The translations under genes were made by a program, and so were the position numbers. Positions 43,264 to 43,902 of a stretch of 64,000 bases of DNA are shown piece after piece. Position 1 is the stretch's first letter. Each line of letters begins with the position of its first letter. A model generated the notes under the pieces. It worked only from the letters and a program-made list of their open reading frames with translations, did not search any database and was not told the DNA's origin. Source of the DNA: Escherichia coli (GTDB taxonomy: Bacteria; Pseudomonadota; Gammaproteobacteria; Enterobacterales; Enterobacteriaceae); NCBI RefSeq assembly GCF_001677475.2, contig NZ_CP015229.1. The stretch is one strand, 5' to 3'.

Positions 43264-43440
43264 GTGAAACAAAGCGAGTTCAGACGTTGGCTCGAATCTC
43301 AGGGCGTCGATGTAGCGAATGGCAGCAACCATTTAAAACTAAGGTTTCACGGGAGGCGCAGTGTCATGCCGCGTCACCCCAGCGAAGAGATTAAAGAATC
43401 ATTGCGTCAAGCCATTCTGAAACTACTCAGTTTGAGTTAA
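43264..43440 (+). CDS. hicA: Type II toxin HicA (mRNA interferase), 58 aa
   Basis: Not in ORF track; GTG start 43264, hand-translated (M)KQSEFRRWLESQGVDVANGSNHLKLRFHGRRSVMPRHPSEEIKESLRQAILKLLSLS. Confidence 0.8.
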   Translation: MKQSEFRRWLESQGVDVANGSNHLKLRFHGRRSVMPRHPSEEIKESLRQAILKLLSLS

Positions 43441-43464
43441 TCGCCCATTAAAAAGGTTAATGAC

Positions 43465-43902
43465 ATGCGAGAGACAGTCGAAATTATGCGTTATCCCGTC
43501 ACTCTTACACCCGCGCCGGAAGGCGGTTATATGGTTTCTTTTGTGGATATCCCTGAAGCGTTGACCCAGGGCGAAACTGTCGCTGAAGCGATGGAAGCGG
43601 CAAAAGATGCTTTACTGACCGCATTTGATTTTTATTTTGAAGATAACGAGCTTATCCCTTTACCTTCGCCATTAAATAGTCACGATCACTTTATTGAAGT
43701 GCCTTTGAGCGTCGCCTCTAAAGTATTGCTGTTAAATGCTTTTTTACAGTCAGAAATCACTCAGCTAGAGTTAGCCAGACGAATTGGCAAACCTAAACAG
43801 GAAATTACTCGCTTATTTAACTTGCACCATGCGACAAAAATCGACGCCGTCCAGCTTGCGGCTAAGGCGCTTGGCAAAGAGTTATCGCTGGTGATGGTTT
43901 GA
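43465..43902 (+). CDS. hicB: Type II antitoxin HicB
   Basis: Track ORF, 145 aa; alternative start ATG 43486 gives 138 aa; 24 bp downstream of hicA. Confidence 0.85.
   Translation: MRETVEIMRYPVTLTPAPEGGYMVSFVDIPEALTQGETVAEAMEAAKDALLTAFDFYFEDNELIPLPSPLNSHDHFIEVPLSVASKVLLLNAFLQSEITQLELARRIGKPKQEITRLFNLHHATKIDAVQLAAKALGKELSLVMV

Follow-up and report, generated by a model that had tools for sequence, protein, structure and literature searches.

The hicAB toxin-antitoxin operon of an Escherichia coli chromosome: gene layout, candidate regulatory sites and a HicA allele with clustered carboxyl-terminal substitutions

The hicAB operon of Escherichia coli K-12 codes for a type II toxin-antitoxin pair whose toxin gene, hicA (yncN, b4532), precedes the antitoxin gene, hicB (ydcQ, b1438). 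In E. coli, HicA acts on mRNAs and on tmRNA as a bacteriostatic RNase that does not require the ribosome (PMC11594946, PMC10865869). His23 is its conserved RNase histidine, and the K-12 allele displays RNase activity and arrests growth upon expression (PMC11594946). The amino terminus domain of HicB neutralises HicA while its helix-turn-helix (HTH) domain binds DNA, and the K-12 protein is labile due to degradation by Lon (PMC11594946, PMC10865869). The direct neutralisation of the K-12 toxin is represented by the 6HPB complex. Two promoters serve the operon: P1, a Sxy-activated promoter with a CRP-S site, and P2, which is repressed by HicB (PMC11594946). The operator hicO is an inverted repeat within P2 (PMC10865869). 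Repression of P2 by HicB at hicO is relieved by excess HicA, and the P2 transcript leads to synthesis of HicB only (PMC11594946, PMC10865869).

The locus analysed here is found within a stretch of 64,000 nucleotides of an E. coli chromosome, hereafter the window. It is the already known hicAB operon at its usual site between yncJ and ydcR, and its two genes are, with high confidence, the orthologs of K-12 hicA and hicB.

Gene layout and identity of HicA and HicB

The coordinates of the features discussed are compiled in Table 1. The original prediction was a 58-codon, GTG-initiated hicA positioned 24 bp upstream of hicB, and the coordinates confirm it: the two genes are on the same strand and their gap (43441-43464) has 24 nt, or 45 nt when the inner hicB start is used. 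The absence of hicA from the list of open reading frames (ORFs) had been attributed both to a length below 60 aa and to the GTG start. The length accounts for it, as the default minimum of the listing program is 60 aa, but the start codon does not, as the program reports GTG starts. The order rlhA-yncJ-hicA-hicB-ydcR matches that of K-12. The RefSeq annotation of the Ecol_316 neighbourhood reads ydcO-sutR-rlhA-yncJ-hicA-hicB-ydcR-ydcS-ydcT, which we take to be the K-12 arrangement, and the synteny of annotated hicA and hicB extends to E. marmotae. RefSeq records of E. coli that were opened have hicA exactly on the interval aligning to the hicA ORF of the window, and NCBI carries both exact proteins, named HicA family toxin and HicB antitoxin (ANO88831.1, ANO88832.1). 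A distant hicAB ortholog (GCA_001908105.1, locus L014) features between hicA and hicB, at its positions 1678-1731, a GC-rich hairpin CCAGCCCTTCGGGGCTGG followed by TTCTT; the hicA-hicB spacer of the window has no hairpin of this kind. The same distant locus codes, 0.6 kb downstream (2710-3177), for RelE and an MqsA-like HTH protein that form a second toxin-antitoxin-like pair.

Table 1. Features of the hicAB locus and of the two other small toxin genes (positions in the window)
Feature	Position	Strand	Remarks
hokB	27650-27796	-	Pfam HOK_GEF, 83 bits; intact
yncJ-hicA intergenic region	43043-43263	+	site of P1 and P2 in K-12
candidate hicO palindrome GTAAAC-N6-GTTTAC	43214-43231	.	proposed from inverted-repeat scan and conservation
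overlapping ORF	43224-43394	+	ATG start, 56 codons, other frame than hicA; probably not a gene
candidate P2 extended -10-like element TGATATACT	43237-43245	+	read from the sequence; putative assignment
hicA Shine-Dalgarno GGGAGG	43254-43259	+	4 nt upstream of GTG
hicA CDS	43264-43440	+	GTG start, 58 codons plus TAA (43438-43440); predicted toxin, ribosome-independent mRNA interferase
hicB CDS, longest form	43465-43902	+	ATG start, 145 aa; predicted antitoxin and transcriptional repressor
hicB CDS, RefSeq form	43486-43902	+	inner ATG, 138 aa, amino terminus MRYPV
ortT	51367-51537	+	Pfam Toxin_GhoT_OrtT, 96.9 bits; intact

The sole PDB sequence match of the window HicA is 6HPB_A, the E. coli HicA of the HicAB complex (52/58 identical residues, E 9.2e-31). 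A HicA-family match, whose absence would have spoken against the original prediction, exists also among profiles: Pfam HicA_toxin (PF07927 / COG1724) recognises the protein with E 1.3e-5 and 25.6 bits, which is 1.4 bits below the gathering cut-off of 27, while K-12 HicA passes on the same profile with 30.9 bits. The NCBIfam search gave no match for HicA or HicB. The profile search alone is thus borderline, and the identity of HicA is settled by its similarity to a solved structure and by the fold match. An AlphaFold2 model of HicA, built on 35 diverse homologs, has a mean pLDDT of 94.9 and the succession of secondary structure elements H3-12, E16-19, E23-28, E31-36 and H45-54. Foldseek comparison of the model to the PDB returned 6HPB_A first (TM 0.94, rmsd 0.8 Å), followed by the HicA toxins 4P78 from Yersinia pestis, 5YRZ from Streptococcus pneumoniae and 6G26 from Burkholderia pseudomallei. 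His23 is retained and is invariant in 37/37 aligned sequences. Residues L10, G14 and L55 are also invariant in the alignment, and H38, kept in the window protein, is conserved in 33/35 homologs.

The 145-aa form of HicB is identical to 6U0I_A at 144/145 positions (E 4.6e-90) and the 138-aa form to 6HPB_B at 137/138 positions; both forms were previously crystallised. The HMM search found Pfam HicB_lk_antitox (PF15919) at residues 10-74 (32.8 bits, cut-off 27) and HTH_3 (PF01381) at residues 95-141 (28.9 bits, cut-off 23), both over their cut-offs. Together with the K-12 gene order, the identities of the two proteins to crystallised HicA and HicB uphold the assignment of the pair. In all E. coli records opened, RefSeq/PGAP uses the inner ATG as the hicB start, residue 3 of the 138-aa form is the first residue of the Pfam domain, and the HicB ortholog with 49% identity begins (MI)MRYPV, without the MRETVEI extension. 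Since the Shine-Dalgarno sequences of the two starts are similarly weak (-3.4 and -3.0 kcal/mol), the start of hicB is either 43465 or 43486. PADLOC gave no match for HicA and only a weak PDC-M64B match for HicB (E 0.0048), and together with the NCBIfam result this lends no support to a catalogued defence system.

By orthology, the products of the locus would act as their K-12 counterparts. HicA would be an RNase of 58 aa with a double-stranded-RNA-binding-domain fold and His23 as catalytic residue, cutting mRNAs and tmRNA independently of the ribosome, and its excess would stop growth. A partial RNase H-like domain at the HicB amino terminus would bind and neutralise HicA, as suggested by the 90% (HicA) and 99% (HicB) identity to the K-12 proteins, while the carboxyl terminus HTH domain would provide dimerisation and DNA binding. 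The upstream promoter P1, activated by CRP and Sxy, would direct synthesis of both proteins. The downstream promoter P2 would be repressed by HicB at hicO and derepressed by excess HicA, and its transcript would yield HicB only, restoring the balance between toxin and antitoxin. Toxicity of HicA and Lon-dependent turnover of HicB are likewise expected from the K-12 work.

Candidate operator and promoters upstream of hicA

A script that searched 43043-43300 for perfect inverted repeats with arms of 6 bp or more detected a single one, the palindrome GTAAAC-N6-GTTTAC, which can also be read as GTAAACA-CTAA-TGTTTAC. An inverted-repeat tool set to report lengths of 8 and above returned nothing, because the palindrome arms have 7 bp. 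A 7-bp palindrome in 220 bp is statistically unremarkable by itself. The sequence is invariant in the window, in a K-12-like sequence and in two E. marmotae loci, and in Ecol_316 a single base change affects the spacer and leaves the two 6-bp arms as they are. In a distant orthologous operon, whose HicA and HicB are 73% and 49% identical, TTGACA is flanked by two palindromes GTAATA-N6-TATTAC that share the 6-N6-6 geometry. The conserved palindrome of the window is a candidate for the hicO operator recognised by HicB.

Immediately downstream of the palindrome is the extended -10-like element TGATATACT, a candidate for P2. Transcription from this element is predicted to start around 43251-43253, bordering the hicA Shine-Dalgarno sequence, a position that fits the published P2 transcript, which gives HicB and not HicA. 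The element was not reported by the consensus promoter scan, in which a match to the -35 sequence is required. The promoter/terminator scan yielded 4 promoter-like sites versus 2.0 +/- 1.5 expected, none of them upstream of hicA, and no terminator, including between hicA and hicB. One of its promoter-like sites (43460-43487) was dismissed as a chance occurrence because transcription would begin inside hicB. P1 could not be placed by consensus, as the best matches to CRP-S and CRP sequences (TGCGA-N6-TTCCA, TGCGA-N6-TCGCA, TGTGA-N6-TCACA) carry 3 mismatches in 10 positions. The sequence TTTGC-N8-GCAAA at 43107-43124 was considered as a CRP-type site and rejected for its wrong spacing. The yncJ-hicA intergenic region as a whole is identical to the K-12-like sequence at 217/221 positions.

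Folding of five RNA segments gave z-scores from -0.75 to +0.76. These values provide no support for RNA structure as the cause either of the lack of hicA translation from the P2 transcript or of the silent-site conservation described below. The Rfam search over 42500-44500 delivered only a sub-threshold match to the REP-derived naRNA4, on the plus strand of the rlhA-yncJ interval (42772-42808; 23 bits versus a gathering threshold of 59.5, E 0.25), which is probably a REP-like element or a chance match.

Distribution of hicA and divergence of its allele in the window

With 1 kb centred on the locus as query, 5,415/5,426 complete E. coli genomes gave a match, the features under it being yncJ, hicA, hicB and ydcR. 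The hicA gene itself is matched over at least 80% of its length in 3,442 of the 5,426 genomes, over less than 80% in 811, and has no match in 1,173. In the partial matches sampled, the alignment ends at nt 116-121 of the gene and the annotation is of a frameshifted "mRNA interferase", the frameshift being due to a 22-bp deletion. Strain a15 has such a deletion, which aligns to window positions 43381-43402 and frameshifts hicA, while in SCU-484, the example opened, a 445-bp deletion (aligned window positions 43219-43663) eliminates hicA along with the 5' part of hicB. With hicA missing or out of frame in about 37% of complete E. coli genomes, the toxin is dispensable. A survey found HicA matches to be rare in phylogroups B2 and C (PMC10790755).

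The nucleotide identity of the window hicA to its counterparts is at most 97.2% in all complete RefSeq E. coli genomes. For the 24 kb from 31000 to 55000 the best identity among the 5,426 complete RefSeq genomes is 97.7%, and nearly all of them are about equidistant; the lineage of the window is thus without a close relative among complete genomes. Draft assemblies match the window exactly around hicAB: positions 41264-45440 are 100% identical to contigs of GCA_019135675.1 and of SRR22006506. The HicA sequence of the window was found on 43 contigs, always beside an intact hicB. Another strain with the same HicA differs from the window at 73 positions, the first near 41376. A part of rlhA/ydcP (41502-42250) is 83-93% identical to the K-12-like sequence versus 96-100% elsewhere in the neighbourhood, a pattern that looks like a recombination mosaic.

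A distinct feature of the locus is its low silent divergence from E. marmotae. Codons with synonymous differences between E. coli and the two E. marmotae loci amount to 3-5% in hicA, 14-16% in hicB and 22-31% in rlhA, yncJ and ydcR; across the hicA promoter and coding region the deficit is roughly six-fold. The zone of low divergence spans 43036-43635. Within it, positions 43186-43335 are 100% identical to E. marmotae, and the yncJ-hicA intergenic region is identical at 214/221 positions versus 68/78 for the hicB-ydcR intergenic region. Possible causes are a recombination patch or a regulatory or nucleotide-level constraint, and the deficit might reflect a hitherto unrecognised function at the nucleotide level instead of a recent recombination patch.

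Three alternative readings of the hicA region were weighed, two of which concern its coding content. The length of 58 codons alone is no evidence of a gene because ORFs of 30 aa or more are abundant here, 43 of them overlapping the 3.5 kb from 42000 to 45500. This density and the sub-threshold Pfam score would agree with a chance ORF beside hicB, the latter then being the only real gene and coding for an HTH regulator. Such a reading is already refuted by the match to a crystallised toxin (E 9e-31), by the fold match at 0.8 Å and by the 85 homolog clusters of HicA in a library of 1.8-billion proteins, and its probability is negligible; in addition, codons 1-39 differ from other alleles mostly by synonymous changes (5 synonymous, 1 nonsynonymous). 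The homology and the strong Shine-Dalgarno sequence place the hicA ORF above chance. The anti-Shine-Dalgarno duplex energy of GGGAGG, a motif invariant across E. coli and E. marmotae, is -11.1 kcal/mol versus a local background of -2.3 +/- 2.8 that comprises all local ATG and GTG triplets. A second small protein, initiated at ATG 43224 and overlapping hicA in another frame, would make the locus more than a two-gene module. The sequence GGAGG (43210-43214) is found at an ideal spacing, 9 nt upstream of this ATG, with a duplex energy of -10.8 kcal/mol; the frame is open in all Escherichia alleles examined (54-56 codons), and dual coding could yield the low synonymous divergence of hicA (3-5% versus 22-31% in flanking genes). 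However, three silent changes that separate the hicA of K-12 from that of the window give radical replacements in the second frame (E>K, Q>K, W>R), the end of the ORF shifts among alleles, there is no Pfam match, and the intergenic region is equally conserved though non-coding. Furthermore, GGAGG and the ATG fall within the candidate operator palindrome, which would form a hairpin on the P1 transcript, and the 73%-identical hicA ortholog lacks the ORF, its upstream ATGs being followed by stops after 3-7 codons. The overlapping ORF was rejected as a protein gene for its poorly conserved end, the lack of a Pfam match and its absence from the distant ortholog; it is very improbable that it codes for a protein.

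The third reading accepts hicA as a gene and concerns the state of the toxin. Relative to K-12, the window HicA carries C40S, D41E, P46S, K49Q, Q54L and G56S. These six changes are confined to the final 19 residues, the first 39 being unchanged (Fisher p = 0.0007), while HicB differs only by Q101L (145-aa numbering). S40 and E41 are common to E. marmotae and Ecol_316, so that P46S, K49Q, Q54L and G56S are lineage-specific. Q54L and G56S fall within the conserved carboxyl terminus motif KQLGL: all 35 homologs have a polar residue at position 54 (25 Q, 8 D, no L), and 28 of them have G at position 56 (none has S). The Pfam score, 5.3 bits below that of K-12 HicA, drops as a consequence of the carboxyl terminus substitutions, including L54 and S56. 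Codon differences from K-12 in hicA are 6 nonsynonymous and 5 synonymous versus 5 and 41 in hicB, yncJ and ydcR pooled (Fisher p = 0.004), an excess compatible with relaxed constraint on the toxin. These observations, the frequent destruction of hicA across E. coli by the 22-bp frameshifting and 445-bp deletions, and the reported rarity of HicA matches in phylogroups B2 and C (PMC10790755) would accord with a decaying module in which HicA is attenuated or inactive through the substitutions in its carboxyl terminus helix and HicB remains mainly as an autoregulator, with hardly any toxin to counteract. Against such decay, hicA has an undamaged reading frame, start codon and Shine-Dalgarno sequence, and its product retains the catalytic H23, the near-invariant H38 and the invariant L10, G14 and L55. 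At position 40, serine is the consensus of the family and the most frequent residue among the 35 homologs, and the family varies at positions 46 and 49. The carboxyl terminus helix is confidently predicted in the model, which superposes on 6HPB_A at 0.8 Å, and the exact allele is kept on all 43 contigs with an intact hicB. Decay is thus considered unlikely, and the window allele probably codes for a functional toxin, whose full toxicity would be that inferred from K-12. The four lineage-specific substitutions in eleven codons may also mean that the helix was remodelled under selection and not by drift, which, if true, could alter toxin potency, RNA preference or affinity for HicB. That both propositions hold, i.e. 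a helix remodelled by selection and, separately, a silent deficit due to an unrecognised nucleotide-level function and not to a recombination patch, is quite improbable.

Neighbouring loci and comparison with known systems

The hokB and ortT genes, both intact, complete with hicA the group of three small toxin loci that had been noticed within about 24 kb; with hokB and ortT included, this stretch measures 23.9 kb. The ortT product is identical at 56/57 positions to what we take to be the K-12 sequence, and the grouping of hokB, hicA and ortT is presumably the conserved K-12 arrangement and not a new cluster. Beyond its correct annotation the locus has little importance, as the structure, RNase activity and two-promoter regulation of the K-12 system were already worked out. 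Because this hicA is short, begins with GTG and, in the allele of the window, scores just under the Pfam threshold, it would escape automated pipelines that demand 60 aa or apply strict HMM cut-offs. The clustering of changes at the HicA carboxyl terminus, together with how often hicA is lost across E. coli and how low silent divergence is around the promoter, could interest those who study the decay of chromosomal toxins.

Among toxin-antitoxin systems at large, mqsRA, higBA and rnlAB share with hicAB the position of the toxin gene ahead of the antitoxin gene and have a second promoter for synthesis of the antitoxin alone (PMC11594946). Their toxins are derepressors and not co-repressors (PMC11594946), a behaviour that the locus of the window would have in common with them, although their protein families are unrelated to HicA and HicB. 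Closer are Y. pestis HicA3-HicB3 (4P78), the B. pseudomallei system (6G26) and S. pneumoniae HicBA (5YRZ). The double-stranded-RNA-binding-domain-like fold of their HicA is shared with the window protein (TM 0.69-0.77) and the catalytic histidine is conserved, while sequence identity is only 19-22%. The amino terminus toxin-binding domain of the S. pneumoniae HicB (5YRZ_A) is related to that of the window HicB (E 0.0055). The DNA-binding domain of HicB in these three systems is of the ribbon-helix-helix type, in contrast to the HTH domain found here and in K-12 (PMC11594946). The closest system is K-12 HicAB itself (6HPB, 6HPC, 6U0I), which has the same locus, gene order, gene lengths and GTG start. 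It shares with the window the palindrome, the -10-like element and the Shine-Dalgarno sequence, all within the 217/221 identical intergenic region, and differs in the six residues of HicA and the single residue of HicB listed above.
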